A stretch of 64,000 bases of DNA, from assembly GCA_963719415.1 (NCBI GenBank), contig OY970383.1, forward strand, positions 748,100 through 812,099, given 5' to 3'. Positions 4,741 through 20,747 of the stretch are shown piece by piece. This stretch comes from an uncultured bacterium (GTDB lineage Bacteria; Babelota; Babeliae; Babelales; Vermiphilaceae). The notes beneath the pieces were generated by a model that saw nothing but the letters and a program-made list of their open reading frames with translations, had not been told where the DNA came from and did no database searches. Both the position numbers and the translations under genes were made by a program. The number at the start of each line of letters is the position of its first letter. The stretch's first letter is position 1.

Positions 4741-6597
4741 GTGAGCATTCAAAAAATTATAAAAAAAACAATCATGCCTGCTCTCGTAACTAGCCTCATA
4801 GCGGGAAGTCTTCACGCAGAAACTAATGAACAAAAACTGACTATGTCTACTCCGCCCTCTGAAAATAAAGCTGTCCCCTACTCTGAACCAACTACACAAC
4901 CAATTGTCAAACCAGCTACTCAGCAAACTACTCCGACAGTTACACAATCAATCGAACAACCACCAGCCCAACAACCATCCACGCAGCCGATCAGTCTGAT
5001 AAATAATCAAGAAAACATACAGACCCCGGCTATCCCTGAACAATTTTTAGATAAAAAAACAGAGTTCGATGAAAGCGCAAAACGCAAGAGCGTTGTTGAT
5101 CTTGTTGAACGCGGCGTTGCCTATTTTAATACACATCTTTTAACAGATTCCTGTAATACCTTTTCCCATACACAAAACTTTGTAGAGGGAGAGCTCTATC
5201 TATTTGTCTATAGATTTGATGGTACAGTATTTGCCCATGGACAACAGGTTGATCTTTTATGGAAAAACTTATATAACACAGAAGATGATTTTGGCACACT
5301 TATAGTTCAATCGCTCATCAAAAAAGCTCGGAATGGTGGTGGTTGGGTTACCTACAAATGGCGTAATGCCACCAAAGTTTCATATATAAAAGAAGTAGAA
5401 AAAGATGGCAAATCTTATGTCATTGGAACCGGCTATTATCCTCATTCTAAAATTGATGCCGTAGTCAATTTAACCAAAAGCGCGGTGGCCTTTTTTAATA
5501 AAACTATCAGCGAAGGACGTTCTATTGATGACGCATTCAGCCCCTTAAGTTATCCAATTGGAAAATTTGTATATGGAGATCTCTATCTACACGCATTAAG
5601 CTTTCAAGGAGTCAACCTCGCCCATGGAAGAAGACCTGGTTTAATTGGCACCAGTTCATGGAATTATAAAGACTCACAGGGAGTTTTTGTTAATCAAGAA
5701 ATAATAAAAAAACTCAATCAAGCACCTGATAAAGGTATCTGGGTAGAATATATTTCTGCTGGAGCCCCAAAACGTACATATGCAGAAAAAGTTAAAGATA
5801 AAGAAGGTAATGCCTATTTTATCGCTTGCGGCTACTATCCAGACGCAGATCGCAATAAAACAGAAAATCTGGTACGCAAAGGATATCAGTTTATGAAAAT
5901 GCATGGCCTTTCAACAGCCCAAAAAGCATTTGATAATATCAATGATGTTGATTATAGATATGGGGACTTACATCTTTTTGTCTATGATACAAATGGTAAA
6001 GTATATGCCTACGGAGGAAATACTGAATTAGTTGGGCAAAATCATTATAATCAAATAGATCAAGATGGTAAATTCTATGTACAAGATTTAATTAAAAAAG
6101 CTGAAAGTGGCGGTGGATGGATTGATATTAAAACGAAAAATTCTTTTAAATCACTCTATGTAGAAAAAATAGAATTAGGCGATCAAACCGGAACCTATAT
6201 CATAGGATCAGGAGTATATCCTATTTCGAAAAGTGAGACCATGGAGCTTTTAGCTAAAAGTGGCGCGGATTATTTATCTTCTCATGATTATACAGATGCA
6301 TTTGCTCAATTTGCTAATCCACAAGGACGCTTTATTCGTGGAGATTTAAATCTATTTGTTTTTGATACTGAAGGCATCTGCTATGTATACGGGAATGATA
6401 ATACCTTAATATGGCGCAAAGGAATCAAATGGGTTGATGATGACAATCTCGCATTTATACAAGAAATAATCAATCAAGCTAGTTTTGGGCCAGGATTAGT
6501 AGAATATAAACTGAACAAAGTTCAAAAAATTGCGTACGTAAAATCTATCCAAAAAGAAAACAAAACGTTCATAGTGGGATCAAGTTATTTTAAATAA
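4741..6597 (+). CDS. secreted protein with four tandem single-Cache (sCache_2-like) domains
   Basis: GTG start after AAGGGA. Signal peptide ...MPALVTSLIAGSLHA, then a Q/P/T-rich linker. A block repeats four times: [GD]L[YHN]LFV[YF]xxxG...HG ... GGGW[VI]xYKW / GIWVEY / GGGWIDIK / GPGLVEYK ... SY[IV]...Y[VI]IG[ST]G[YV]YP. This matches the Cache_2 pattern (Y.F..d.dG....hp ... GGGfv.Y.W ... K.sYv ... w.igtGvY). Confidence 0.7.
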   Translation: MSIQKIIKKTIMPALVTSLIAGSLHAETNEQKLTMSTPPSENKAVPYSEPTTQPIVKPATQQTTPTVTQSIEQPPAQQPSTQPISLINNQENIQTPAIPEQFLDKKTEFDESAKRKSVVDLVERGVAYFNTHLLTDSCNTFSHTQNFVEGELYLFVYRFDGTVFAHGQQVDLLWKNLYNTEDDFGTLIVQSLIKKARNGGGWVTYKWRNATKVSYIKEVEKDGKSYVIGTGYYPHSKIDAVVNLTKSAVAFFNKTISEGRSIDDAFSPLSYPIGKFVYGDLYLHALSFQGVNLAHGRRPGLIGTSSWNYKDSQGVFVNQEIIKKLNQAPDKGIWVEYISAGAPKRTYAEKVKDKEGNAYFIACGYYPDADRNKTENLVRKGYQFMKMHGLSTAQKAFDNINDVDYRYGDLHLFVYDTNGKVYAYGGNTELVGQNHYNQIDQDGKFYVQDLIKKAESGGGWIDIKTKNSFKSLYVEKIELGDQTGTYIIGSGVYPISKSETMELLAKSGADYLSSHDYTDAFAQFANPQGRFIRGDLNLFVFDTEGICYVYGNDNTLIWRKGIKWVDDDNLAFIQEIINQASFGPGLVEYKLNKVQKIAYVKSIQKENKTFIVGSSYFK

Positions 6598-6619
6598 ACA
6601 TTATACGAAAGGGTTTTTT

Positions 6620-7036
6620 ATGAATTGCAACTGTAACTGTCGGAATGGTGAGAAGTGTGAAAAATGTATGTCAAACAAAGGATGTGATACTAACAATCAA
6701 TCATCCAACAAAAACAAAGAACATGGATCACAAAACAAAAACAACCAAAACGAATCACAGAACAAGAACAAAGAACAGGGATCGTCTGGCAGCCAAAAAT
6801 CAACTGGAAGTCATGATTGGGAACAAGATTCGTCAAGCAAAAACAAACAGCAGGGCCAAGGATCATACAACAAAGACAACCAAAACGAATCACACGATAA
6901 AAATAAAGAACACGAATCTCATGACAAAAACAACCAAAATGGGTCACACAACAAAAACAGAGATAGCGAACACGAATCATCACACAAAAACAAAGAACAT
7001 GAAAACAGCACAAAGAAAGATACTCACAAAAAATAA
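6620..7036 (+). CDS. Cys-rich N-terminus plus His/Asn/Lys-rich low-complexity protein
   Basis: The N-terminus MNCNCNCRNGEKCEKC is shared with the next gene. The remainder is degenerate repeats such as NKNKEHGSQNKNNQNESQ and NKNKEHESHDKNNQNGSH. RBS-like aaaggg lies upstream of the ATG. Confidence 0.5.
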   Translation: MNCNCNCRNGEKCEKCMSNKGCDTNNQSSNKNKEHGSQNKNNQNESQNKNKEQGSSGSQKSTGSHDWEQDSSSKNKQQGQGSYNKDNQNESHDKNKEHESHDKNNQNGSHNKNRDSEHESSHKNKEHENSTKKDTHKK

Positions 7037-7068
7037 AAGCTGATCGTTTGTTTCATATTGATTTTCAG

Positions 7069-7094
7069 GCAGATAGGCTTAACCGCCTATCTGC
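7069..7094 (+). terminator. 10-bp perfect hairpin downstream of 6620..7036
   Basis: gcagataggc (7069-7078), loop ttaacc, gcctatctgc (7085-7094). The T-tract is weak. Confidence 0.45.
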
Positions 7095-7144
7095 TGTCTA
7101 GTGTTTAAATAAAAATATTCTACTTATACATAAAAGGGTCTTCT

Positions 7145-7588
7145 ATGAATTGCAACTGCTCAGCGAATAAAACATGTGAAAAATGTATATCAAAAAAAGA
7201 ACATGATACAAAAAATCAATCAGCAAACAATAATAATCAACAAGAAAATGGTATTAAAACAATAACCGCTGAGCAATTATTAGAAAAAATGAAAAATGAA
7301 AATTCACTGACCGTCATTAATGTATTATCGCAAGCGTATTACAATAAATGCCACATAAAAGACTCCATCAATATCCCCGTTGATCAGCTACAAGGCACAG
7401 CAAAAGAAAGCTGGGATACAAATGACGAAATAGTCGTTTATTGCGCTAATGATGAATGCCCTCTAAGTCGCAATGCGTATAGCATACTCAAAAAACTTGG
7501 TTTTACTCACATATTGGCATATGAAGGTGGCATTGCAGAATGGAGTAAAAAAGGATATCCCACTGTTGGAGATGACTGTACATTCTAA
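7145..7588 (+). CDS. rhodanese-domain protein with an N-terminal CxC-x5-CxxC module
   Basis: N-terminus MNCNCSANKTCEKC, then a rhodanese-like fold: LTVINVLS...YNKCHIKDSINIP...IVVYCANDECPLSRNAYSILKKLGFTHILAYEGGIAEWSKKGYP. The active-site loop reads CANDEC rather than CRxGxR. Confidence 0.7.
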   Translation: MNCNCSANKTCEKCISKKEHDTKNQSANNNNQQENGIKTITAEQLLEKMKNENSLTVINVLSQAYYNKCHIKDSINIPVDQLQGTAKESWDTNDEIVVYCANDECPLSRNAYSILKKLGFTHILAYEGGIAEWSKKGYPTVGDDCTF

Positions 7589-7636
7589 ACTTTTTAACAC
7601 TTTTAAGTAATATAAATAAATTAAATTGACGCTATC

Positions 7637-7657
7637 ATAGCCCCCAAAGGGGGCTAT
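7637..7657. terminator. bidirectional hairpin between convergent genes
   Basis: atagccccc aaa gggggctat is a 9-bp GC-rich stem with a 3-nt loop, located between the rhodanese gene (+) and the VKOR gene (-). Confidence 0.6.
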
Positions 7658-7726
7658 AGCTCTTATGTCCCTAAAATCTCTTTTTCTATTGCCATTTCTC
7701 ACGAAACTGAGATTAATTACCGGTTT

Positions 7727-8146
7727 TTATTTTCTTAATTGTGTCACCAATAACAGGACATTAATTATATACATAGACACACACACAACACAAAACGACT
7801 TAATTTGCGTAACTAAAATAAGAAAGAGCACCGCAGATGCAAAACAACCTGTAATAGACAGCCAAAAAAGTGCTGTTTTCATACACAATAAAGCACATAT
7901 AATAATACTCAGATAAAAAAATATACCCAATAGAGAATTCGAGATACCAAACATCTTATTATAAGGACTTAAAAGAGGCTTTGAACAAGAAAAACGATCC
8001 GATATATCACAAAAGGGCTTATAGTTTTGATCTTTTTTTAATAAATAGTCTAACCTATACGAATATATCGAAAAGAACAAACCCAATACTGCCAATATAA
8101 TAGTATGTGTCATCATAGCTTGAGCGCCTATAATAGGTATTATCAT
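7727..8146 (-). CDS. vitamin K epoxide reductase (VKOR) family membrane protein
   Basis: Four hydrophobic helices. Loop cysteine pair and Ser in FCDISDRFSCSKPLLSPYNKMFGISNSLLG. CxxC sits in the last helix (SFCVVCVSMY). Confidence 0.78.
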   Translation of the reverse strand: MIIPIIGAQAMMTHTIILAVLGLFFSIYSYRLDYLLKKDQNYKPFCDISDRFSCSKPLLSPYNKMFGISNSLLGIFFYLSIIICALLCMKTALFWLSITGCFASAVLFLILVTQIKSFCVVCVSMYIINVLLLVTQLRK

Positions 8147-8182
8147 AACTTAAATCCCTTTTTAATTATTATTTTTTTCTTC

Positions 8183-8845
8183 CTATTCTGGAAACCTAAC
8201 TACCCCTTGCTTCTGCCAATCAGCTAGAAAATTCGCCATGCCACTCTGCGTCAAAGGATGCCGCAACGCTTTTTCTAGAAGAGAGACGGGTAGCGTTGCT
8301 ATATCTGCTCCCGCTTCAATAGCTTTGCAAAATTGATCAACATCACGTAAAGAGGCAGCCAAAATTTTTGTTGAAAAACCATACTGATCGATCATACTCC
8401 GCAATAAATATAGCAGCGAAATTCCGTCACTCCCTATATCTTCTAGGCGACCAATAAAAGGCGATATATAGGTTACACCAAGTTTACACATCATAAGCGC
8501 TTGTGGCAGCGTAAAAACAAGCGTCACATTAATTAAAATACCTTCAGAAACTAATCGCTTTATAACAGAATAATACTGAATATCAGCAGGAATTTTAACA
8601 ACGACATTGGTCGCTAATGCTGCAATAGCTAATGCTTGTTTATATACTAAATCTGGATCTTGTTCAGTAACTTCAACACTTACCGGCTTATCTTTCATAA
8701 TTGTGGCAATTTTTTTTATTAATTGAGTTGGATCCTTTTTTTCATGACTAACAAGAGATGGATTAGTGGTAACGCCATCAACAATACCCCTTTTTGCCCA
8801 CAATTCAAGAGCATCGCTATCAACAGTATCTAAAAAAATATGCAT
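8183..8845 (-). CDS. tal: transaldolase / fructose-6-phosphate aldolase family (short type)
   Basis: 220 aa: MHIFLDTVD...GVTTNPSL, Schiff-base Lys context VVKIPA, NVTLVF, ISPFIGRLEDIG. Confidence 0.88.
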   Translation of the reverse strand: MHIFLDTVDSDALELWAKRGIVDGVTTNPSLVSHEKKDPTQLIKKIATIMKDKPVSVEVTEQDPDLVYKQALAIAALATNVVVKIPADIQYYSVIKRLVSEGILINVTLVFTLPQALMMCKLGVTYISPFIGRLEDIGSDGISLLYLLRSMIDQYGFSTKILAASLRDVDQFCKAIEAGADIATLPVSLLEKALRHPLTQSGMANFLADWQKQGVVRFPE

Positions 8846-8943
8846 TTCTATTTCCTCTATAAATATGTTAGATATATATATGTTATAAATTTTTAATAAA
8901 TTTTTGATAGCTATTTATACTTACTATAAAAAAGTACACTCGC

Positions 8944-10062
8944 ATGTATCCATTACTTTTTTACCTATCTCCATTGTTTTTTATTATATCCTGCACGTTT
9001 GCCACCTGCACAACTTCGATAACAACAAAGCCAAACAAAATAGTAGGGCTTGTACAAGCTCGAAACGAAGCCGATATTATAGAACAATGTCTACGAAGTC
9101 TGGCAGTCTACACCGATGCCATAGTGCTTCTTGACGATAACTCTTGCGACAAAACAGCTCTTATAGCACAACAACTATCTCGTGAACTAACTATTGAACA
9201 TATTATTAAACAACCCTATTCTGGCTGGGAAAAAACATCAGAATCAGCTAACCGACAAACTCTTTTAGATGCTGGACGCGCTATTGGCGGCACCCATTTT
9301 ATACTTATAGACGCTGATGAGCTTTTCATGGCACCGTGTTCAAAAAACATAGATGACCATAAAAAAGTAATCGTAGATTCACGGCAATCAGATGAAACTA
9401 GTAGGGGCACTAATTGGCTTCGCACTCAAATTCTGACTTTAAAACCAGGACAATATATATCATTTCCCATGGTCAACGTATGGGGAAACACGTCTGTATA
9501 TCGAGATGATAAATTTTGTAGCCCTAGAGATAACACCTGGAGAAAAAAACCAATTATTTTTTACGATGACGGGAAATGCTCTTATCTTAATAATTCGACT
9601 AATCTACACAATATACATACTACAAACATGCTTCATGCATCTCGCATTCCTCGTAACTTACTCTGTTGGGAACCAAAACGGGAGCTTATTGTGCGTGATA
9701 TCAATCATGGTATCATACATTTTAAATGGGTTAATTTTGAAAACATACTTAATAAAAAAATATGGTACATGATGCTCGAATATATACGTGCACACGAACA
9801 TTGGTCGAATCATGATCAAAACAAAATAGCCCATATTATTAATAATTTTTATAACAACCGTGAATTTAAAAACATGATGCCAGAAGAACAAAATATACTA
9901 CTAAAACCCGTACCAAAAAGCTGGTATGATTACCCTTTTTTTGATGCTACCTGCTATACGAAATTAAATCAAAGTCGACAATGCGATATTGCTCGTTGGC
10001 TTGAAACCTATGGGACTGATTATTTTTCTCGCTTAGATTTATCTTGCTTCCTCAGAGCTTAA
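8944..10062 (+). CDS. glycosyltransferase family 2-like protein with an N-terminal anchor
   Basis: VGLVQARNEADIIEQCLRSL...IVLLDDNSCDKT and ILIDADE (DxD-like) resemble GT2 / Glyco_tranf_2_4-type enzymes. The N-terminus is hydrophobic. Confidence 0.55.
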   Translation: MYPLLFYLSPLFFIISCTFATCTTSITTKPNKIVGLVQARNEADIIEQCLRSLAVYTDAIVLLDDNSCDKTALIAQQLSRELTIEHIIKQPYSGWEKTSESANRQTLLDAGRAIGGTHFILIDADELFMAPCSKNIDDHKKVIVDSRQSDETSRGTNWLRTQILTLKPGQYISFPMVNVWGNTSVYRDDKFCSPRDNTWRKKPIIFYDDGKCSYLNNSTNLHNIHTTNMLHASRIPRNLLCWEPKRELIVRDINHGIIHFKWVNFENILNKKIWYMMLEYIRAHEHWSNHDQNKIAHIINNFYNNREFKNMMPEEQNILLKPVPKSWYDYPFFDATCYTKLNQSRQCDIARWLETYGTDYFSRLDLSCFLRA

Positions 10063-10157
10063 AAAAAAACAATTTAAATCAAACAGGACATGTCAATGTG
10101 TCAATGCGATTCAAGCAAACCATATCATTATTCCTAACTTTCACCTTTTTTACGCAG

Positions 10158-11324
10158 TTACACATGCTTAAGACGGCTACTAAACACCTTGAAGGCTATT
10201 ATACCAAGCGCCATACCAAATCCCCTCGAAATCCACAGAGTTTGATTTTGTTGTTGTTCCTGCAAAAGTCGTTGCTGCTGCAAAAGTTGCAGCTGTTGTT
10301 GTAGAAATTGTTGCCGTTGTTGTTGCTGTTGTTGCCGCTGTTGTAGAAATTGTTGCTGTTGTTGCCGCTGTTGTCGTTCCTGCAAAAGTTGCTGCTTTTC
10401 CTCCCTACTAAGCAGACCTGAAGGCTCTGGAGGCAACAGAAACAATCCTTCTTTCCTATGATGCGCTTCAAGAATTCTATATGATACTTCAACCGTCCTT
10501 TTTGGATCTGGATGCTTATCATTTGCTATAAAATATGGATTTTGGGCTTTTGATAAAATACCCTTATACACAAATAAAGCAATATTGATATCTCCAAGAG
10601 CAGCTGGAAGCAGGTCTGCTGTAATTTCATGTATTCCAGCAAAAGCATTCTTGTCTTCAACAGACAACTGCTTACCTCGAGTACAATTAATAAGCATTCT
10701 TACAAAAGAATGTAATTCTTGTATATGCGTTGCCTCATGATACGCTACTTGCAAGGCCCGATCAGGACGGCTCAATTCTAATGGAATAGAATCTAAATCA
10801 CACTCTAGACAATACTGCATCTTGGAACCATTATTAGGTAAAAATTCAAAATCTAACACAACCCTCATTGCTGCAGTAGGCAAAAGACTTACTCGATAAT
10901 CAATGTTTAAAGGGTTAATACCTGCAGCCCGCAAACTAGATTCGAAAGCATCTATTATGATCTGAGGCATACGATCATCCCTTATTGGTGGATAAGGCAA
11001 AGGACGTTCTTTTTTTAAAATCTCTAGATGATCTCTTACTATATTTTTAATTACCGAAAAGCGTGATTCAATATCTTCTTCCTCTACACCTTGTACTTGT
11101 AGCGCTATCTTTAGAGCTTCATCATCATTTCGCCTTAACTGAACAGCATAGTCTTCTGGTCGAACAAGCTGTGGCGAAAGCAAAGCATTAATTGCCCGAT
11201 CTTGCCAAGCCCTTTTATTAGAAAGAGTTAAACTATTTTGCGCAAGCTGTTCTGCTCCAAAACAAAAATAAATTTGCATACAAAAAAATATAATAATAGA
11301 AAAATAGCGGCAAAAATGTCTCAT
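10158..11324 (-). CDS. hypothetical secreted/anchored protein with an HExxH motif and a poly-Q tract
   Basis: Signal-like N-terminus FSIIIFFCMQIYFCFGA. YHEATHIQELH contains HExxH. Q-rich tract REEKQQLLQERQQRQQQQQFLQQRQQQQQQRQQFLQQQLQLLQQQRLLQEQQQNQ. C-terminal hydrophobic segment GFGMALGIIAFKVF. Confidence 0.5.
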   Translation of the reverse strand: MRHFCRYFSIIIFFCMQIYFCFGAEQLAQNSLTLSNKRAWQDRAINALLSPQLVRPEDYAVQLRRNDDEALKIALQVQGVEEEDIESRFSVIKNIVRDHLEILKKERPLPYPPIRDDRMPQIIIDAFESSLRAAGINPLNIDYRVSLLPTAAMRVVLDFEFLPNNGSKMQYCLECDLDSIPLELSRPDRALQVAYHEATHIQELHSFVRMLINCTRGKQLSVEDKNAFAGIHEITADLLPAALGDINIALFVYKGILSKAQNPYFIANDKHPDPKRTVEVSYRILEAHHRKEGLFLLPPEPSGLLSREEKQQLLQERQQRQQQQQFLQQRQQQQQQRQQFLQQQLQLLQQQRLLQEQQQNQTLWISRGFGMALGIIAFKVFSSRLKHV

Positions 11325-11420
11325 GCAAAAGCCTTTTGCAATAGTAAAAAATTACAATTTTTATGTGTTTGTTTATAGTGTATAAGATTTATGAGCAAAA
11401 TCAATTTTATAGGAGGGTTA

Positions 11421-12515
11421 ATTCAAGTTCGAAGTGCAAATTCCATACTCTCGTAAAATAGTTTTGCCGGTGTTTGGTATCCAAGAATTTTTCTAGGTGT
11501 ATTATTTAATTTATTTTGAATATCCATTAACTGATTTGCATCAAGGTATGAGATAGACGATCCTTTGGGCAAATAACGCCGCAACAATAGCGTTAGATTT
11601 TTCAACCTGCCCTTTTTGCCACGGCGAATGAGGGTCGCAGAAATAGGTCTTAAAATCAGGAAACGTATGCAATAAAGAATGTTGTGTAAATTCTGTACCA
11701 TTATCAAAAGTAATAGATTTACGCATAATTTTAGGAATTGATGCCATTGCCTTAAATGCATTCACAATAACTAAATTCGATTTTTTTTGAGCTATTTTTA
11801 ATGAGAATCATGTATCTTGTTTTACGATCAACGATGTTCATAATATTTTGTGATTGGTCTCCACCGCCAAAAAGTAAATCTCCCTCAAAATGGCCAACTT
11901 CTATACGTTTATTAATGGCTTCAGGTCTATCATGTATAGATACCCGTTCTGGAATTGTAGTTTTTCTAGATTTTTCTTGCGCCTCTTTGATTTCTTTTGC
12001 TTCGCATTGAGGCTAAAAAAAGATATAGCGGGGGTCTTTTTTTAGCCTCAAAAGATGATTTTTTTTCTGCATCGAAATAAATATATGAATAAATTGTTTC
12101 TGTTGTTATTGTTGTTGCCATTGATTTTTTACTTTCAGCGGCAATCACATCTGGAGACCATTTCATTTTTAATTTTTCAATTATAAAATCGTTTAATTTT
12201 TTATCTTTTTCTAATTTTCGTACTAAAACATATTTTCTTTTTTTAGCCATATTGTGAGCTTTATCTGGGGTATACTCAATAGCATCATTGTAGCGATTAC
12301 ATCTCAATTCTCGAGAAATTGTCGATTCATGTCGTTTTATTTCTTTTGCTATTTCTGTATTTTTTTTTCCACTTTGCTTCATCTCAAATATCGTTTCTCG
12401 CTCTTTTAATGTTAATTGTGTATAATTTTTCATGCGCAGGACCTTTTTTATGATTTGTTTTTTTTGTCAAAAACAGTTTATCACGAAATAGGTTCTTGCA
12501 CTTCATTATAGAATT
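11421..12515 (-). mobile_element. IS30-family insertion sequence, degenerate
   Basis: Imperfect terminal inverted repeats: aattcNNNNNNgaagtgcaa at 11421-11440 and its complement ttgcacttcNNNNNNgaatt at 12496-12515. They enclose a frameshifted IS30-type transposase. Confidence 0.65.
11423..12433 (-). pseudogene. IS30-family transposase broken by at least three frameshifts
   Basis: N-terminal HTH ORF (LTLKERETIFEMKQSGKKNTEIAKEIKRHESTISRELRCN). The unlisted middle frame reads IPERVSIHDRPEAINKRIEVGHFEGDLLFGG. Then ITFDNGTEF ... CDPHSPWQKGQVEKSN, and in another frame RRYLPKGSSISYLDANQLMDIQNKLNNTPRKILGYQTPAKLF. Shifts lie near 11965, in an A8 run near 11770, and near 11580. Confidence 0.8.
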
Positions 12516-12609
12516 TTCCATGACTTGCTCCTATGAGGGCAATAAAAAATGCTATTTATAAAAACAGAATGCATAACAATATTAAAAATTTTAAAAAAAA
12601 GCATAGTCT

Positions 12610-13098
12610 ATGATGAAAAAAAAATGTACTTTTATATCCTTATTGTTGATTATTCTATTGCATGAATCAGCTTCTGCCATGCATAATTCTAAAGCTTTAG
12701 TAAGACAATTTTCAAAGGTTCCAAAGCGAATGATGTGGCAGGGTAACCGCAATGGCTTTGGTGATGAAACACCAGGCCTACATGGTGCTGTTGCTGGTAT
12801 CCTAGGAGGATCATTTGGTATGCTTTTGGGCGCAGCAAGCGGTCCAGGAATGGTTATGTTGATTTCTGTACCTGTATATTTTATAACTGAAACTATCGAT
12901 CCTACTCCTAGCAAAAAAAAGCCTTCTGAGGGTCCGGATCCTATGCCATTAGTTCTTTACCGTAGCATACAAGTTGGAAGTGCCGTCGGAGGTACTACTG
13001 GAGCTGCCTATTTTGGCGGAAAAGCTGGTGTAAAAGGATTTGCAATATTTGCTGGTGCTGTAGCTGCAAATGCGGCGTATCACAAATACATAAAATAA
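12610..13098 (+). CDS. glycine-zipper membrane protein, hypothetical
   Basis: Signal peptide ...LLHESASA, then Gly/Ala-rich hydrophobic segments GAVAGILGGSFGMLLGAASGPGMVML and GSAVGGTTGAAYFGGKAGVKGFAIFAGAVAANAA. Confidence 0.5.
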   Translation: MMKKKCTFISLLLIILLHESASAMHNSKALVRQFSKVPKRMMWQGNRNGFGDETPGLHGAVAGILGGSFGMLLGAASGPGMVMLISVPVYFITETIDPTPSKKKPSEGPDPMPLVLYRSIQVGSAVGGTTGAAYFGGKAGVKGFAIFAGAVAANAAYHKYIK

Positions 13099-13196
13099 AC
13101 TCATTTTTCAGCAAAAAACAGCTTCCTCTTATTACTATTAATTTTGTAACATGCTTCTTAATAAATAGAATTTTTAACAAGATATGAGGAAAATGT

Positions 13197-13532
13197 ATGG
13201 AAATTAATTTAGATATGATAACAACATCTTTTGATATTCCGGGATACAACATTACTCAATCACTTGGCATCGTACAAGGAATTTCCGTGGTATCTGCTGG
13301 TGTATTTGGTAACTGGAGAGCCTCTTGGCAATCAATGGCATCAGGAAACGTTCCACGATTCACAAGACTATGCGAAGAAACAAGAGATGCTGCTTTTAAA
13401 GTTCTAATTAAACATGCTCAAAAACTTGGAGCAAACGCAATTATAGGGTTACGATTTGATTCTAATGAAATTGGCGATGGAATTACAGAAATACTTGCTT
13501 ATGGCACTGCCGTAATTATAGAAAAAAAATAA
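13197..13532 (+). CDS. YbjQ/UPF0145 family protein
   Basis: GAGGA RBS. MITTSFDIPGYNITQSLGIVQGISV...LGANAIIGLRFDSNEI...AYGTAVIIEK is colinear with E. coli YbjQ (TTPTLEGQ...GVVTGEA...LGADAVVGIDIDYE...SGTAVK). Confidence 0.8.
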   Translation: MEINLDMITTSFDIPGYNITQSLGIVQGISVVSAGVFGNWRASWQSMASGNVPRFTRLCEETRDAAFKVLIKHAQKLGANAIIGLRFDSNEIGDGITEILAYGTAVIIEKK

Positions 13533-13673
13533 ATAAATAAACCATAAACCCAACAATAAAAAAATCTCTTATCCCAAAAAACTATTACACCAATTTCAGG
13601 CTATATCGTCTATTTTTAAAACTACCTATTTCTAGAATCACTATTTTTTGGCTGCTATACAACGAAACTGGCA

Positions 13674-14090
13674 TTACTTTTGAATAACTTTAATAGAAAT
13701 CGATAACACCTCGCCCTTCTCATTTTCAAGTTCAAAAACAGCTGGTGCATTCCACGAAACTTCATAAGCTTTATTAGCAATTAAATCGTAGTCACCATTC
13801 CCGTTATCACGATACATTTCTACCGCAACAATAACTGTTGATTCCCGAGTGCAAATAACATAATTAATAATACCAGATTCATCGCTCAGCACATTAATTC
13901 TATAAACACTATCATATTTAACTGATGTTTCTGTATCTGGTATAACCTGTTTCTGAACTATTTTTTTACTATTCTCACCACTAATAAAAAGCAAATCCGC
14001 TTCTACAATTACTTTTGCTTGAATAGAAAGTGTTAATGCTGCAAAAGAGAACATTGATACAAAAAATATAAAAAACTTTTGTATACTCAT
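13674..14090 (-). CDS. small secreted protein, divergent member of the local six-gene paralogue family
   Basis: Signal peptide FFIFFVSMFSFAALTLSIQA. Core VIVAVEMYRDNGNGDYDLIANKAYEVSWNAPAVFELENEKGEVLSISIKV is colinear with the cores of the five genes further along the + strand. Confidence 0.55.
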   Translation of the reverse strand: MSIQKFFIFFVSMFSFAALTLSIQAKVIVEADLLFISGENSKKIVQKQVIPDTETSVKYDSVYRINVLSDESGIINYVICTRESTVIVAVEMYRDNGNGDYDLIANKAYEVSWNAPAVFELENEKGEVLSISIKVIQK

Positions 14091-14186
14091 TATTCAATTA
14101 CTCCGTAATAGATTATTTCATACTCACCGACTACATCCAACTTCAAAAACAATATCAATCAACTCTCTATTCCATTTTCTGCTGAA

Positions 14187-14819
14187 TTATAAACAACCTA
14201 ATTCTCCATTTTTTGCATCTTTCCAGTTTCGCCAAATTTCAAATTCTTTTTGCCTACGTCTTCTATCTTCTTCCAGCTTAACCGTTTCCTTTTCCTCTGC
14301 TTCTTGCCTGCGCTTTAACCCTTCTTCCACTAAGCTGCGTAACTCTTCTTCTTTAGCTCCTTGGCCTTGCAGCTTCTCTTCTTCTATCGCCGCTTTTGCA
14401 AAATCTGCTAAAAGTTCGTCACATCGTTTTAAAAGCAACCAATTCGATCCCACAATTACCACTACTCCTGGTATAACTACAGGTACAGCTGCCAATGAAC
14501 CAAAAGGTACCGATGCCCCAAAACCCAATCCTGCAATTGCTCCCGTGCTCGCCAAACCTCCTATCCATCCTTTTTGCGCTTTGCAAGAACCAATTAAATC
14601 AGCGCCATATTTACGCGCTACTTCTCCTGGTATAACACTTGTAGCAACTCCTGCAAACCCACTACCAACGCCTCCTGCTCCACCAAGCACGGCACTCCCG
14701 ATTGCGCCAGCCAAAGTTTTTGCTCCTAAATTTGGTATTTTTATAAAACGCATGGCACTTGTCGACCCAGATAATATAATAAAAAACAATAACAACAGAA
14801 TAAAGTTCGCTACTCTCAT
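14187..14819 (-). CDS. glycine-zipper membrane protein with a charged coiled-coil tail
   Basis: ATG 14819 with a GGGAGAG RBS is preferred over TTG 14861. Signal-like MRVANFILLLLFFIILSGSTSA. Gly-rich hydrophobic segments GAIGSAVLGGAGGVGSGFAGVA and GGLASTGAIAGLGFGAS. Tail EEEKLQGQGAKEEELRSLVEEGLKRRQEAEEKETVKLEEDRRRRQKEFEIW. Confidence 0.55.
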   Translation of the reverse strand: MRVANFILLLLFFIILSGSTSAMRFIKIPNLGAKTLAGAIGSAVLGGAGGVGSGFAGVATSVIPGEVARKYGADLIGSCKAQKGWIGGLASTGAIAGLGFGASVPFGSLAAVPVVIPGVVVIVGSNWLLLKRCDELLADFAKAAIEEEKLQGQGAKEEELRSLVEEGLKRRQEAEEKETVKLEEDRRRRQKEFEIWRNWKDAKNGELGCL

Positions 14820-14941
14820 GACTCTCCCTGTTTCAATAAAAGAAGGGAACCCGTAAGACAAACCTAGTATATCTCACTTATTCCCTTCTTAATTTATTTT
14901 AAAACTAAGTTACTTTCTACAATTAATTAAGCTATTAATTT

Positions 14942-15496
14942 TTAAGGAGCAGCTTCACAAACTGTTTCTTGATGCTTTATTTCTTCACAAGCCTCGCGTG
15001 ACGCTTCTTTGCTAGCTACTGGACAATCAGTTGTTATAGCGTTACTAGCACAATCTATATTCGTAAAATCAGCAGCTGCTACACTAACAACATCTCTGCA
15101 TACAACAAAGGTAATTAGTCTATCTTCAAGAATTTTTCCTGCTGCGTCTTTTCTTCCAAAACGAGCGTAAGCTTCTCTTCCCGGTGCAAGAGAATATACG
15201 CCCTTAATAACTAACCTAAACTCACCTTTATCATTTTTTGCAAACAACTCAATGGCAAATACAACATCTTTACCATCATCAGCGATAATAGTATATACTA
15301 TTTCACAATCGTCGCTAATGCTCAATTTGGCATGCCGATTATCGGTAATATTAAAATCGAGCCCAAAATCTGAGGTTTGAATACGGTTTTGTGTAGAACT
15401 TTCTTTTATCGTATGCACAACCTTCGATTTAATATGTATATCAGCAAAAACAGGTGCTGAAACTAGCAATGCTAAAACTAAAAACATATTTTTCAT
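14942..15496 (-). CDS. small secreted protein, paralogue family member with a Cys-rich tail
   Basis: MKNMFLVLALLVSAPVFADIHIKS signal. Core VVFAIELFAKNDKGEFRLVIKGVYSLAPGREAYARFGRKDAAGK. Tail has 5 Cys (CASNAITTDCPVASKEASREACEEIKHQETVC). Confidence 0.65.
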   Translation of the reverse strand: MKNMFLVLALLVSAPVFADIHIKSKVVHTIKESSTQNRIQTSDFGLDFNITDNRHAKLSISDDCEIVYTIIADDGKDVVFAIELFAKNDKGEFRLVIKGVYSLAPGREAYARFGRKDAAGKILEDRLITFVVCRDVVSVAAADFTNIDCASNAITTDCPVASKEASREACEEIKHQETVCEAAP

Positions 15497-15564
15497 GAAA
15501 GATTTTCTCTATCTTGATTGTGATTCTATCCGAGACACAATTTAAAAATTCTTAATACACTCTA

Positions 15565-16083
15565 CTATGCTGCAACTTCTTCTGTTGCTTCTGTTGCAAA
15601 TTCTTGATCTACAACTTCTTCAGTCGCTCCTTTTTCACTTACCATACCAGCAACATCTTTATGAGCAACTTTACGAGCAACGATAGTAATTGATTTGCTT
15701 TCAGCCACTTCATTTGCTACATTTTTTTCCCCAAAACGAATAAATGCTTCTTTGTCCCATGCAACAACCAATGTTGAGTTACGAACTAATTCAAATTCGT
15801 CTTGACTGTTTTTTTCAAACCAATGAATGGCAAGCACTATTCCTGTATCCGTGACATCAAGAATAGTATAGGTAAACTGGAAATTTTCGATACGAAATGT
15901 AGCTAGCCGATCATCAATATCATTAAAAACACAACCATTAAACAAAAACTCAAAACTTACTTCTCGAGTGCTACTTTGTGTTGGAGTTTTTTTTACTGTG
16001 CTTACAAAATTTGACTGAATATGTATATCGGCCAAAGCAGATGCTGAGATCAATAATGCCATACTCAATAATACATTTTTCAT
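15565..16083 (-). CDS. small secreted protein, paralogue family member with an acidic tail
   Basis: MKNVLLSMALLISASALADIHIQS signal. Core IVLAIHWFEKNSQDEFELVRNSTLVVAWDKEAFIRFGEKNVANE. Tail is E/T/A-rich. Confidence 0.65.
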   Translation of the reverse strand: MKNVLLSMALLISASALADIHIQSNFVSTVKKTPTQSSTREVSFEFLFNGCVFNDIDDRLATFRIENFQFTYTILDVTDTGIVLAIHWFEKNSQDEFELVRNSTLVVAWDKEAFIRFGEKNVANEVAESKSITIVARKVAHKDVAGMVSEKGATEEVVDQEFATEATEEVAA

Positions 16084-16187
16084 AGGGATTCCTTACAACA
16101 TAAAATACACTATTATTTACAAAAAATTACCCAGTAATTATACCATGCTGCTATTATAATTACCAAAAAAATTTAACATTAATTAAA

Positions 16188-16685
16188 TTATTCGCTTTTA
16201 ATATCAGATTCACAAACAGCAGATTCGCAAGCATTTATTTGATCGCAGGCTACTTCTTTACAAGCTTTTTTAGAATCGCATTCTGCTTCTACTTTATCGC
16301 CATGATCGCTATGATAAACTACAATCGTTATCGTCAATAATGGCTTTCCTTCTTCATCAAGCCAAAGGCCGCAAACCTTTTTGCCCCATGCTACCAATAC
16401 TATATGCTTGCCAAACAACTCTTCTTTGTCAGATATTACTTCCAGCGTTGCTGTTTCATCATTAACTCTTTTTAAAACAAAAGTCATAGTACCATCTTCG
16501 GTAGATAGCACAACCTCTCCATTAGCATCAAATTTTAATTTAGACGCTGCAACTACTTTACTCACATCATCTACGACATAATTAACGGTGACATCCAATA
16601 AAACCTGTGAAACATCAATCGTATGACAAACAACAAATGCTGGAACTGAGAATGCTAATACTAATGCTAAAATCATATTTTTCAT
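16188..16685 (-). CDS. small secreted protein, paralogue family member with a Cys-rich tail
   Basis: MKNMILALVLAFSVPAFV signal. The core is more diverged (LEVISDKEELFGKHIVLVAWGKKVCGLWLDEEGKPLLTITIVV). Tail ECDSKKACKEVACDQINACESAVCES. Confidence 0.6.
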   Translation of the reverse strand: MKNMILALVLAFSVPAFVVCHTIDVSQVLLDVTVNYVVDDVSKVVAASKLKFDANGEVVLSTEDGTMTFVLKRVNDETATLEVISDKEELFGKHIVLVAWGKKVCGLWLDEEGKPLLTITIVVYHSDHGDKVEAECDSKKACKEVACDQINACESAVCESDIKSE

Positions 16686-16799
16686 GACTATATCCCTATT
16701 TTCTCTTATTATTTATTATATAGGCTAAAATGAAGTCCTTAATTTTAAACAACTGCTTCGTTATTTTCACACACAACTTCTCTACTTTTTTCACTCTTA

Positions 16800-17336
16800 T
16801 TACTTTTCTTCGCCTTCATCACTATCATCAAATAGACCAATATCGACTCCTCTCAAATGATCATCATCATCATTATCATCATCATCGTTATCATCATCGT
16901 TATCATTTTCGTGAGCCGTAATGGCAAGTGAAACACTTTCAGTTTTTTGACCTGCTGTATCTTTTCTTCCAAAAAAAACAACCGCTTCTTGATCCCACTT
17001 AAGAGTCAATGTCGGATTACAAACTAACTTAAATTCACCTTGACTGTTTTTTTCAAACCATTCAACAACAAGAATAAGTCCCTCATCCATAACAGCAAGA
17101 ATAGTATAAAGTATCTTAGACTCAGAATCTCTACCAATCACTATAGTAGAATGATCACTGACCTCTTTAAACTCTAAATCAAAATTCAATTCTTGTGTAC
17201 GACCTTGCTTCGATTGAGTACAACTCCGCTCTATAACTTCCCTTGTAAAATGGGAGCAAATACGTATATCCGCAAAAAGAGGGGCTGATATTGATATCGA
17301 AATTAATAGAGCTAATGATAAAATGATATTTTTCAT
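16800..17336 (-). CDS. small secreted protein, paralogue family member with an Asp/Asn-repeat tail
   Basis: Start reassigned to ATG 17336 (MKNIILSLALLISISISAPLFADIRI). Core LILVVEWFEKNSQGEFKLVCNPTLTLKWDQEAVVFFGRKDTAGQ. Tail NDNDDDNDDDDNDDDD. Confidence 0.65.
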   Translation of the reverse strand: MKNIILSLALLISISISAPLFADIRICSHFTREVIERSCTQSKQGRTQELNFDLEFKEVSDHSTIVIGRDSESKILYTILAVMDEGLILVVEWFEKNSQGEFKLVCNPTLTLKWDQEAVVFFGRKDTAGQKTESVSLAITAHENDNDDDNDDDDNDDDDHLRGVDIGLFDDSDEGEEK

Positions 17337-17523
17337 AAAAGCCTTTCTAACGTATAAATATAAAATAAAATACTTATAAAATAAGATACTTAACGTGCAC
17401 AAAAAACCCCAATTTAAACAAGAGAACGACGAAGTATAACCTCATCGTTCTCTTGTTTATTTATTCTAAATTGAAGCTACTTAATTATGAGTAGTTTTTT
17501 TTATCCTACTCACCAGTAACTTT

Positions 17524-18054
17524 TTAACTTACAACTTCTGCGTTCTGTTCGCTCACAACTTCTTCACTCACGCCATTCTCAACATTAGCTACAGTGCTAT
17601 CAACTGAAATTATAGCACCATCTTCACCATTTTTTTGGGCAACAACAACGATAAATAGATTATCTTCTGTATTCTCAGTCTCTTTGTCTTCCGACTCGCT
17701 AATAGCAATAACTGCTTCTTGTCCCCACTGGGTTGATACAGTCGCCGTTGAAACTACTTCAAATTCGCCTTCATCATTTTTTAAACATAATGAAATAGTA
17801 TATTCAACTTCTTCGTCTTCTACCTTAATAATAGTACATGTCATTTTGCAAAATTCATTAATAAGTTGCTCTTTAGATAGCGGATACTCAGAATTGGAAG
17901 CAATATCAAAAGGAAATAGCAGAGCCATTTTTCTCATTAATTCTTTTACTCGATGCACTAAAGCTACTCGTATTTCTATTTTTTCCACAACAGCAAAAGT
18001 AGGCGCGGAAACCAACAATCCCATAAATACCATACCCAATAATAACTTCTTCAT
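17524..18054 (-). CDS. small secreted protein, paralogue family member with an acidic tail
   Basis: Start reassigned to ATG 18054 (MKKLLLGMVFMGLLVSAPTFA). Core VEYTISLCLKNDEGEFEVVSTATVSTQWGQEAVIAISE. Confidence 0.6.
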   Translation of the reverse strand: MKKLLLGMVFMGLLVSAPTFAVVEKIEIRVALVHRVKELMRKMALLFPFDIASNSEYPLSKEQLINEFCKMTCTIIKVEDEEVEYTISLCLKNDEGEFEVVSTATVSTQWGQEAVIAISESEDKETENTEDNLFIVVVAQKNGEDGAIISVDSTVANVENGVSEEVVSEQNAEVVS

Positions 18055-18176
18055 AAAAACTCCTTCGTATAAATATAAATAAATATAATTTCTCAACATA
18101 CTAGCAAAATGATACTATCAAAATGCATATCCATGATAGTTGAAAATTTATTAAATAACAAATAATTTAAAATTTA

Positions 18177-20747
18177 TTAAATAACAAAATTTATTAAACG
18201 GTTTGGTACAAAAACTATTTTCTTAATCGATGACGCTACAAGCCATTTTGAGACCAACACAATCGCTTCTTGCTCTATATCTTCTTGACTACTATCACGA
18301 GCAATCATAAGAGTACCCCGCACTTTTCCTTGGACCTGCACCACGAGAGGAATCTGTAACTCAATAGTAAATTTTTCATTATAAGTCGGCCATGAACAAT
18401 CTATGAGTGATTTTTCACAGACAACTTCCAATAATTCACTTGCCATACAGGGAACAAGGGTAGATAAAACTACGAATATAGATTCCCATGATTCTTTATT
18501 CAGTTTCATCTGCTGAGCATAGACATCATTCATAAGTTCCATCGCAGCTGATACTGCCGTATTAGGCTTAAATGCATCTATACGCTTTTGAAAATCCTTT
18601 ATAAATTGATGCAATCTTCTCGTAACAGCCATTGGCTGTTCTTCATTACTACGTAATATATTATTTGCATTTGTGCTATAGGACCACAATCGATTTAAAA
18701 ACCTTTTAACCCCATCAAGTCCTGTATCTTGCCATTCACAATCCAATTCTGGTGGTCCCATAAAAAGAATATACATACGTAATGCATCAGAACCAAACCT
18801 GTTTACAATTTCATCAGGGTTAACTACATTCCCCTTAGATTTTGACATTTTTTCAACATGGCCCGTTAATTCAGACAATTTAAGAACCATCCCTTGATTA
18901 AAAAGCTGAGCAAACGGCTCATTAAAAGGCAAATGGCCCAAATCGTAGAGTACTTTTACATAAAATCTGGCATACAGCAAATGTAAAATAGCATGTTCGA
19001 TACCTCCCACATAAAGATCAACCGGCAACCAATAATTCATGTCTTCTTGACTCCATGGTTTATCGGTTAATGTCGGATTTGGGTAGCGTAAAAAATACCA
19101 ACAAGACCCCGCCCATTGAGGCATGGTATTGGTCTCTCTCTTAGCGCTTTTATTACATGAAGGACATACCGTATTAACCCACTCAGTAATGGCAGCAAGA
19201 GGCGATTCCCCGGTACCTGTCGGCTGATATTTTTCCACTTCCGGCAAAATAACGGGTAACTGATCTTCGGGAACCGGCACAATACCACAATCCGTACAAT
19301 GAATAAGCGGAATAGGTTCTCCCCAATAACGTTGACGAGAAAAAATCCAGTCACGTAATTTATATTGATGAGTAAGTTCTGCTAAACCCCTGTCTTTGCA
19401 ATACTCGATAATCTCTTTTCTGACGTCGCCAGCCCGACAACCCTTAAATTCAGCAGGAGCTGACAAAATGCCATTTTCCATATCTGTGTAACAAAACTCT
19501 AAGTTAGCAACCTGTTGAGCTAATACGGGATCGGTAGGAAACAATACCGGCTTTAAAGGGATATTATATTTTTTAGCAAAATTAAAATCACGTTGATCAT
19601 GAGCTGAACATTTCACTATACCCGTGCCATAATGAGCAAGCGCAAAGCTAGCAACCCAAATCGGTAGTTCAGTATTGCTTACTGGATCTATAATATAACG
19701 GCCAGTAAAAATACCCTCACTATTATTTATCTTATCAGACTCTTTTTCATTATTTTTCTCTTGCTTTCGACTATCAACTATTTTTTTACAAAAAGCTATA
19801 ATCTCATCCTTATTGGCAACGGGATCAATTAAGTCTAAAAGAAGCGGATGATCGGGCGCAATAACCACGAACGTATCTGATGCAAAAGCTTCAAAATGGG
19901 CATTAAAAGTCTGAATAATTATACTCTTTTCAGCTGATTTTAATAGATGGGAGGATTGGTCGTTTCTCTCTAAAGAGGGAGAACAATCGGTAGTTTTGCT
20001 CGCGTATTGAGAGGCCAAAACTTTGACTGGTGCGGCAAAAAGTAAACCCTTACTTTTGCCAATCCAATTTCGTTGCATTGTCTTAACTTTTTCTGGCCAA
20101 TTCAGCGTATCAAGATCATTTAACAGCTTTTCTGCATAATCGGTGATACGTAAAACCCACTGCCTAATCTCTTTTTGTTCAACCAACGTACCGCATCGTT
20201 CACAACCACCATTCACCACTTCTTCATTTGCCAAACCAGTCAAACAAGATGGACACCAATTAATCGGCATAAATCCTTCATAGGCAAGACCAGCTTTATA
20301 CATTTGTAAAAAAATCCACTGCGTCCATTTATAATAGGCTGGATCGGTAGTATTGATCTCTTTAGACCAATCATACAGAGCGCCAATCTGCTTAAGCTGA
20401 GTTTTAAAATGAGCAATGTTACGATCGGTACCTGCTTGAGGATGAATTCCTTTTTTAAGAGCATCATTTTCTGCTGGAAGACCAAAAGCATCCCACCCCA
20501 TTGGATGTAAAATTTGATAACCCTGCAACCATTTTATACGAGCGTAAACATCAGAAAGAACATATCCTCTCCAATGACCAACATGAAGACCCGAACCTGA
20601 AGGATAAGGAAACATATCTAGACAATAATATTTTTTACCCGTTTTATTATTTTTTTCGCTACCATTTTTTACTAAAAGATCCGATTCTATCCGTGCATGC
20701 CACTTCTGCTCTACCTGTTTTATATCATATTTTATATCTTGTTGCAT
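18177..20747 (-). CDS. leuS: leucyl-tRNA synthetase
   Basis: 856 aa: [12 protein letters not shown] (HIGH), KMSKSKGN (KMSKS), NWIGKSKG, a CP1 segment with [18 protein letters not shown], and [16 protein letters not shown]. Confidence 0.95.

Follow-up and report, generated by a model that had tools for sequence, protein, structure and literature searches.

An unnamed family of small, putatively exported beta-rich proteins forms a tandem array behind leuS in an uncultured member of the Dependentiae

The Dependentiae are widespread, mostly uncultured parasites of protists with a large secretome of unknown proteins, in which the machinery for the interaction with the host is believed to lie. In Chromulinavorax, for example, 44% of the coding sequences carry signal peptides, and this set is enriched in ORFans (orphan open reading frames) (PMC6561590). 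It has also been reported that the Babeliales are devoid of most genes for lipopolysaccharide (LPS), and that every TM6 genome holds the core of a type II secretion system with two copies of gspD (PMC4776705). The locus analysed here lies in a 64,000-nt stretch (hereafter the window; contig OY970383.1 of assembly GCA_963719415.1) from an uncultured bacterium of the same phylum. A previous sequence-only reading had noticed in it six small secreted proteins encoded in tandem next to leuS, and the six corresponding minus-strand open reading frames (ORFs) were recovered in the ORF list of the window. The copies are labelled A to F, and all coordinates are positions within the window (Table 1). We consider it fairly probable that this array represents a local tandem expansion of an unnamed Babeliales family whose members are exported and function, without enzymatic activity, in binding or structure at the envelope or at the host interface. 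The family belongs to a known pattern, namely the tandem, fast-evolving exported ORFan families of the Dependentiae.

The family itself is real and unnamed, and its members are small proteins in which an export leader precedes a core predicted with confidence to be all-beta. Copies A to D are unambiguous paralogues, with 26–42% identity and E-values of 1e-8 to 6e-31 in all-against-all BLASTP; in the same comparison copy F is marginal and copy E shares little outside the leader, so that the membership of these two has been confirmed by profile methods only. A hidden Markov model (HMM) of A to D, run against every ORF of the genome (a single contig of 1.416 Mb with 35.5% GC), as the sequence-only reading had proposed, recovers F at E 1.9e-5 and copy E at only 0.39, and finds no family copy outside the array. 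By hhalign, the E type is joined to the rest of the family with 97.8% probability (E 8e-13), the whole core being covered. In addition, a profile of 49 family sequences scores the six copies at 2.2e-35 to 2.8e-21 (copy E at 2.8e-21, F at 2.1e-24), and all six match over the whole core of ~110 aa, including the signature described below, the conserved W and P of which have been lost in copy A. The proposal that the six genes are one family is thus borne out, through BLASTP for A to D and through profiles for E and F. The same can be said of the proposal that the core corresponds to no known family: in Pfam, at E up to 0.1, none of the copies and not more than one of the 49 members has a family match; searches of NCBIfam, PHROGs and PADLOC gave no match; and a sequence profile search of the PDB returned only noise, with CopC as its best match (E 0.48). 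No match of the core to a characterised housekeeping domain was obtained in the family and structure searches, and no source searched attaches a family name to these proteins.

The structure of the core has been predicted from copy A. When the full-length protein is modelled by AlphaFold 2 (AF2) with the family alignment, residues 20–134 reach a predicted local distance difference test score (pLDDT) of ~95, residues 143–168 stay below 50, and the N-terminus, with a low pLDDT, falls outside the fold; the core-only model has a pLDDT of 94.1 and a predicted template modelling score of 0.80. A constant beta-rich domain with modular variable tails, as had been supposed, is therefore in agreement with the contrast between the core (~94–95) and the tails (<50). 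The model comprises eight strands of 7–13 residues in simple sequential order, connected by turns of 2–5 residues. According to the column statistics, the strands alternate strictly between hydrophobic and polar residues, and the outer faces are rich in T/E/K, giving charged surfaces, which argues for a soluble domain. The sole conserved signature, KN..GE..LV..P.....W..EA, is placed around the beta5–beta6 hairpin and the beta6–beta7 loop. No residues of catalytic type are conserved in the column statistics of the core, nor is any His, Met or Cys. The Foldseek comparison of the AF2 core model that had been suggested was run against the PDB and BFVD; it yielded no match below E 1e-3 and no convincing neighbour, the best class being C2 domains, after which come GFP-like and OmpA-like barrels and a de novo beta protein (template modelling scores, TM, of 0.28–0.42, with large root mean square deviations, rmsd). 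We regard the predicted fold as one for which no known structure is a convincing neighbour, and make no claim that it is new. An outer-membrane barrel with eight strands of the OmpA/OmpX type was considered and rejected on account of the T/E/K/S-rich strand face and of C-termini that end in TAHNE, in ATKI or in acidic tails; the OmpA match has a TM of 0.30.

The distribution of the family is wider than this genome. Among 1.84 billion representative proteins, a profile search gave 51 matches at E up to 1e-3, nearly all of them of 117–142 aa, and most relatives consist of a leader and a core of ~120 aa in total, with no tail. A match to a cadherin-repeat protein of 2926 aa (P0015) was rejected as kinship, since its hhalign probability is 0.1% and the match comes from acidic tail columns; another (P0013) is a repeat artefact. 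The family has been detected in at least 62 of 261 Dependentiae genomes, belonging to 39 of 145 genera and to several families of the order, and in 49 of the 189 high-quality genomes. In these searches it was found only in Dependentiae genomes and among metagenome proteins of unassigned origin. Family-bearing Dependentiae genomes carry one or two copies, mostly one, and the six described here are the maximum. The idea that the family is lineage-specific in the narrow sense is thus not sustained, with 39 genera involved; what is local is only the six-copy expansion and the tails.

The leuS gene on the right border of the block, as had been indicated, is confirmed, and its closest relatives are from metagenome-assembled genomes (MAGs) of 'candidate division TM6' and 'Candidatus Babeliales'. 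A family gene is found 30–120 bp 3' of leuS, on the same strand, in G001, G007, G008, G011, G013, L009, L091–L094 and L014. The linkage is confined to one clade, comprising G001 (of the same genus), G007, G008, G011, G013 and the metagenome contigs L009 and L091–L094. In L014, a distant Babeliales MAG (AMX-MBFR-12), leuS is followed, at positions 6475–8355, by an ORF of 187 aa and three tandem small ORFs with signal peptides; these three match the family profile weakly (E 5.6e-6 to 5.4e-4) and may form an array of independent or ancient origin at this locus.

This position suggests two explanations other than a binding module. In Proteobacteria, leuS and lptE form a classic gene pair, and LptE has an alpha/beta fold. 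A small exported protein encoded directly 3' of leuS could accordingly be taken for a divergent LptE-like plug or another Lpt component. However, no match to LptE (PF04390) or LptD (PF04453) is obtained in this genome at E up to 1, control genomes being positive; the family has no canonical lipobox and its model is all-beta; and the Babeliales are without LPS synthesis genes (PMC4776705). An LptE analogue has therefore been rejected, its likelihood being close to negligible. The second explanation is that the protein resides in the periplasm or envelope, is co-transcribed with leuS and has a housekeeping function in support of the LPS-less outer membrane or the peptidoglycan, the extra copies being near-neutral duplicates with no host role. 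It would suit the site behind leuS in at least 10 lineages, the many genera that carry the family, and a soluble beta domain behind a Sec signal. On the other hand, a housekeeping function is difficult to reconcile with detection in only a minority of the genomes, also among the high-quality ones, and with a leuS linkage kept in one clade only. Evolutionary rates, treated below, bear on it as well.

The history of the array can be followed by comparison with L009, a related metagenome contig whose leuS is 90% identical. In L009, leuS is followed by D-, A-, E- and F-like genes and then by genes for a transaldolase and VKOR; the order in the window is leuS-D-C-E-B-A-G2-F, then a stretch of ~5.5 kb, and then VKOR. 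The orthologue of D (P0006) occupies the same position and is 55% identical (ratio of nonsynonymous to synonymous substitution rates, dN/dS, 0.44); that of A (P0004) is 55% identical in the core; that of E (P0010) is 54% identical; and that of F (P0009), the last gene of the L009 array, is 56% identical (dN/dS 0.37). The description of the block as accessory is consequently too simple, since D, A, E and F are kept in the same order after leuS. Copies B and C are without counterpart in L009. In the tree, D, A, E and F each pair with their L009 counterpart (support 100), and B and C group with A and a third metagenomic sequence, P0008 (94/91). Because B and C fall within the A subfamily, they are older than the split from L009, which may have lost them. 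The genome of the same genus, G001, has one tail-less copy after leuS, and the most economical history is therefore that the gene was duplicated in place and that the copies then diverged rapidly and gained tails. No recent gene conversion among the copies was found, the longest shared DNA stretch being 109 nt at 71% identity.

Fast evolution of the family is clear from the same comparison. Between the window and L009, leuS and rpsA are 90–95% identical with a dN/dS of 0.06, and a neighbouring hypothetical gene has 0.12, whereas the four orthologous family pairs are 50–56% identical with 0.37–0.57; pairwise values for the core alone are 0.31–0.52, all these ratios being rough because dS (0.5–1.1) is near saturation. 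Thus, the family orthologues evolve 5–10 times faster than the flanking genes, under relaxed or weak purifying selection. The family had also been called diversifying, and for this the core ratios, which are below 1, give no sign of positive selection. Ratios below 1 would be expected of the resident envelope protein considered above, but essential envelope components are usually better conserved than proteins changing at this pace relative to neighbouring housekeeping genes, and with the patchy detection and the one-clade linkage this makes such a protein an unlikely alternative. The high dN/dS relative to the neighbours, together with the disordered, low-complexity tails, could also indicate duplicates that are decaying or have no function, or ORFs that do not represent genes. 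This is highly improbable, given that the six frames are intact and have Shine–Dalgarno (SD)-like sites, that four copies have intact orthologues in L009 with ratios clearly below 1, that the core fold is predicted with high confidence, and that a strong negative GC skew over 13.5–18.5 kb agrees with minus-strand coding. In fact, a purine-rich SD-like element precedes the ATG start of all six copies (GAAGGAG upstream of D), which favours the starts chosen in the sequence-only reading over longer alternatives.

The export leaders had been described as a shared signal peptide, and the sequences agree. Judged by inspection under the -3/-1 rule, all six N-termini show the n-, h- and c-regions of a Sec leader cleaved by signal peptidase I: Lys in the n-region, a hydrophobic h-region, and a small-x-small cleavage motif with small residues at -3 and -1 (VFA/D, ALA/D, LFA/D, TFA/V, VPA/F and IQA/K, the slash marking the cleavage site). 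The beginning ending in ADI[HR]I that had been ascribed to four genes is present in three. By a crude rule, signal-peptide-like N-termini occur on ~30% of the ORFs in the genome.

As for the C-termini, a different tail on each copy, of the types that had been listed, is found in five copies, and the sixth, F, is tail-less. The tails of A and E are Cys-rich, those of B and D are E/V/T-rich, and C carries NDNDDDNDDDD. In C, the DNA of the Asp/Asn tract is an (ATC)n microsatellite (16860–16906), so that at least this tail arose through trinucleotide slippage. Moreover, copy A and its L009 orthologue have non-homologous tails, which means that tails turn over and that one has been replaced since the split from L009. 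Strongly acidic C-termini (net charge of -8 or below in the last 30 aa) are found in only ~19 of ~1250 ORFs genome-wide, including an ndk whose tail is poly-Glu. The array contributes two of its six genes to this set, and a further three have tails that are less strongly acidic. All tails of the array are acidic (net charge -5 to -18), and two hold 4–5 Cys, which would fit periplasmic proteins for cation or metal buffering, or chaperones, with the core as a carrier and with poly-Asp/Glu and CxnC tails that bind Ca2+, Mg2+ or transition metals. The best, non-significant, PDB sequence match is also to a periplasmic copper protein, the CopC mentioned above. Nevertheless, most family members have no tail and the core conserves none of the residues His, Met or Cys; the CopC match is at noise level and CopC is absent from the Foldseek matches, for which reasons relationship to CopC/PcoC was rejected; and the 'heavy-metal-binding' of the YbjQ gene near the array is only an annotation label, that gene being absent from the syntenic L009. 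A metal-buffering function is therefore very unlikely.

The interpretation that we favour, a binding or structural module at the envelope or host interface, can be formulated as follows. The ancestral form would have been one gene of ~120 aa, encoding a Sec-type signal peptide and a compact, soluble, eight-strand all-beta domain. In this genome, the single gene linked to leuS has given rise to a tandem expansion, and five of the six copies have gained disordered acidic or Cys-rich tails. Sec would export the proteins to the periplasm of a diderm cell devoid of LPS, and from there they would either be retained as components of the envelope or surface or leave through the type II secretin pathway or in vesicles. 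The genome encodes two Omp85 proteins and two secretins, and the two secretins and the lack of LptD and LptE agree with what has been reported for the phylum (PMC4776705). The secretins (GspD-like, PF00263) are at ~42343–42831 and ~47302–47775 on the plus strand, inside ORFs of 970 and 947 aa, ~5 kb apart. Once exported, the proteins would probably act as non-enzymatic modules for binding or structure, since no residues of catalytic type are conserved, and the tails might contribute polyanionic, disulfide or metal-binding capacity. Fast evolution, patchy distribution and changes in copy number are consistent with a protein exposed to the host or the environment.

Several points weigh against this interpretation. 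Apart from leuS no recurrent neighbour was found, nor any ligand or partner, so that the binding module is argued from the absence of catalytic features in the sequences. A dN/dS below 1 gives no support for diversifying selection, and the site behind a housekeeping gene could equally mean a constitutive envelope role with no host contact. Finally, the blank result of Foldseek may stem from low sensitivity for all-beta folds and not from true novelty. A more ambitious view would be that the small beta fold of the core is truly new, that this exported family, so far seen only in the Dependentiae, serves the building of an LPS-less surface or the engagement of the protist host, and that the array reflects adaptive neofunctionalisation, for example with tails that capture host cationic proteins or metals; we regard this view as rather unlikely.

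Table 1. Features of the array and its surroundings (positions in the window)
Feature	Position	Strand	Description
leuS	18177..20747	-	Conserved same-strand upstream neighbour of the array
Copy D	17524..18054	-	Signal peptide, eight-strand beta core and acidic tail rich in E/V/S; first gene after leuS
Copy C	16800..17336	-	A subfamily; Asp/Asn-rich tail, net charge -18
Copy E	16188..16685	-	Divergent; beta5-beta6 hairpin shortened; five Cys in tail
Copy B	15565..16083	-	A subfamily; acidic tail rich in E/V/T/A
Copy A	14942..15496	-	Modelled member; core residues 19-134, then disordered tail with four Cys
G2	14187..14819	-	ORFan between A and F; signal or anchor sequence, two Gly/Ala-rich hydrophobic segments and a charged helical tail
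Copy F	13674..14090	-	Tail-less; last gene of the array
YbjQ/UPF0145 gene	13197..13532	+	Array flank, not of the family; Pfam YbjQ_1, 5e-28
G1	12610..13098	+	ORFan; signal peptide and Gly/Ala-rich hydrophobic segments; outside the array
IS30-like remnant, fragmented	11423..12433	-	Left edge of the ~5.5-kb stretch that L009 is without

Other features of the region are summarised in Table 1 together with the array. A scan for promoters and terminators performed no better than on shuffled sequence. An extended -10-like element, TGGTATAAT, is located upstream of B. An AT-rich element of ~25 nt is common to 17351–17391 and 18066–18090, in each case immediately before the SD site of the copy (C and D, respectively). 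It probably represents a promoter or leader region that has been duplicated, and it is the source of spurious upstream ORF extensions with repeated YLYLY. A tandem duplication of 26 bp, ATAATTGAAAATTTATTAAATAACAA, with two copies 92% identical, lies at 18136–18188 and overlaps both the stop codon of leuS and the beginning of the spacer between leuS and D. The leuS product has 856 aa in the window vs 822 aa in L009, with a low-complexity insertion of ~34 aa in the region of the editing domain.

To the left of the array, the ~5.5-kb stretch at 8146–13600 contains a GT2 glycosyltransferase, an HExxH poly-Q protein, the IS30 remnant, G1 and YbjQ, and L009 has the transaldolase instead; this stretch may be an insertion or rearrangement linked to the insertion sequence (IS) element. 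A decayed IS30 copy had been placed on the left border, and for this the support is an HTH_38 match (8.9e-14) in one fragment of 155 aa, the other fragments having no Pfam match. The YbjQ gene was correctly identified: it matches YbjQ_1 at 98.2 bits (cut-off 23) over profile positions 2–103 of 103 and is a member of UPF0145. Its position among the array genes does not stand, as it lies beyond the left end of the array, and it is absent at the corresponding position in L009. Two interleaved glycine-zipper genes had been described, and of these G2 is inside the array and G1 is beyond its left end. They have a common architecture, with a leader that ends in SAM[HR] and GxxxG-rich hydrophobic segments, visible in the letters of the two proteins only, to which G2 adds its tail. 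However, the two do not form a second gene family: no significant sequence similarity was found between them, so that homology is not supported, and in searches of 5.8 billion proteins and of 60 related genomes each of them retrieved itself alone; both are strict ORFans. Neither has a match in Pfam (E up to 1) or NCBIfam (E up to 0.1), including the Gly-zipper/Rick_17kDa families, and G2 is absent from the syntenic L009.

The definition of the family does not in itself reveal a new mechanism. What was an anonymous cluster is now a defined family, with a profile, a signature, a high-confidence model, an occurrence in at least 39 genera and a syntenic anchor, and is thus amenable to structure determination and to localisation in those few Babeliales that have been cultured. 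Three known systems come closest to it. The C2 domains (C2A of plant E-Syt1, 7atp/7as6; cPLA2 GIVD, 5izr; a Trichomonas C2, 9zk1) are, like the core, all-beta, with eight strands and ~120–130 residues, and were repeatedly the top Foldseek matches, with probability up to 0.98–1.0. However, their E-values are never below 1e-3, TM is 0.28–0.40 and rmsd 6–14 Å, and a Pfam C2 match is found in 0 of the 49 members; membership was therefore rejected (best TM 0.40 against a criterion of >0.5), the likeness being one of size and strand count only. The proteobacterial LptE resembles the family as a small exported protein encoded right after leuS, and differs in that here there is no sequence match, lipobox, LptD partner or LPS pathway. 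Finally, a further parallel is the ORFan secretome of the Dependentiae, as described for Chromulinavorax destructans (PMC6561590) and in TM6 genomics (PMC4776705): it concerns the same phylum, with a proteome rich in Sec signals and in proteins of unknown function, and with an LPS-less diderm cell plan and a type II secretion core with two gspD, both of which are seen in this genome. Those studies describe the phenomenon, whereas the present locus provides a specific family, with its signature, predicted fold, distribution and leuS anchor.

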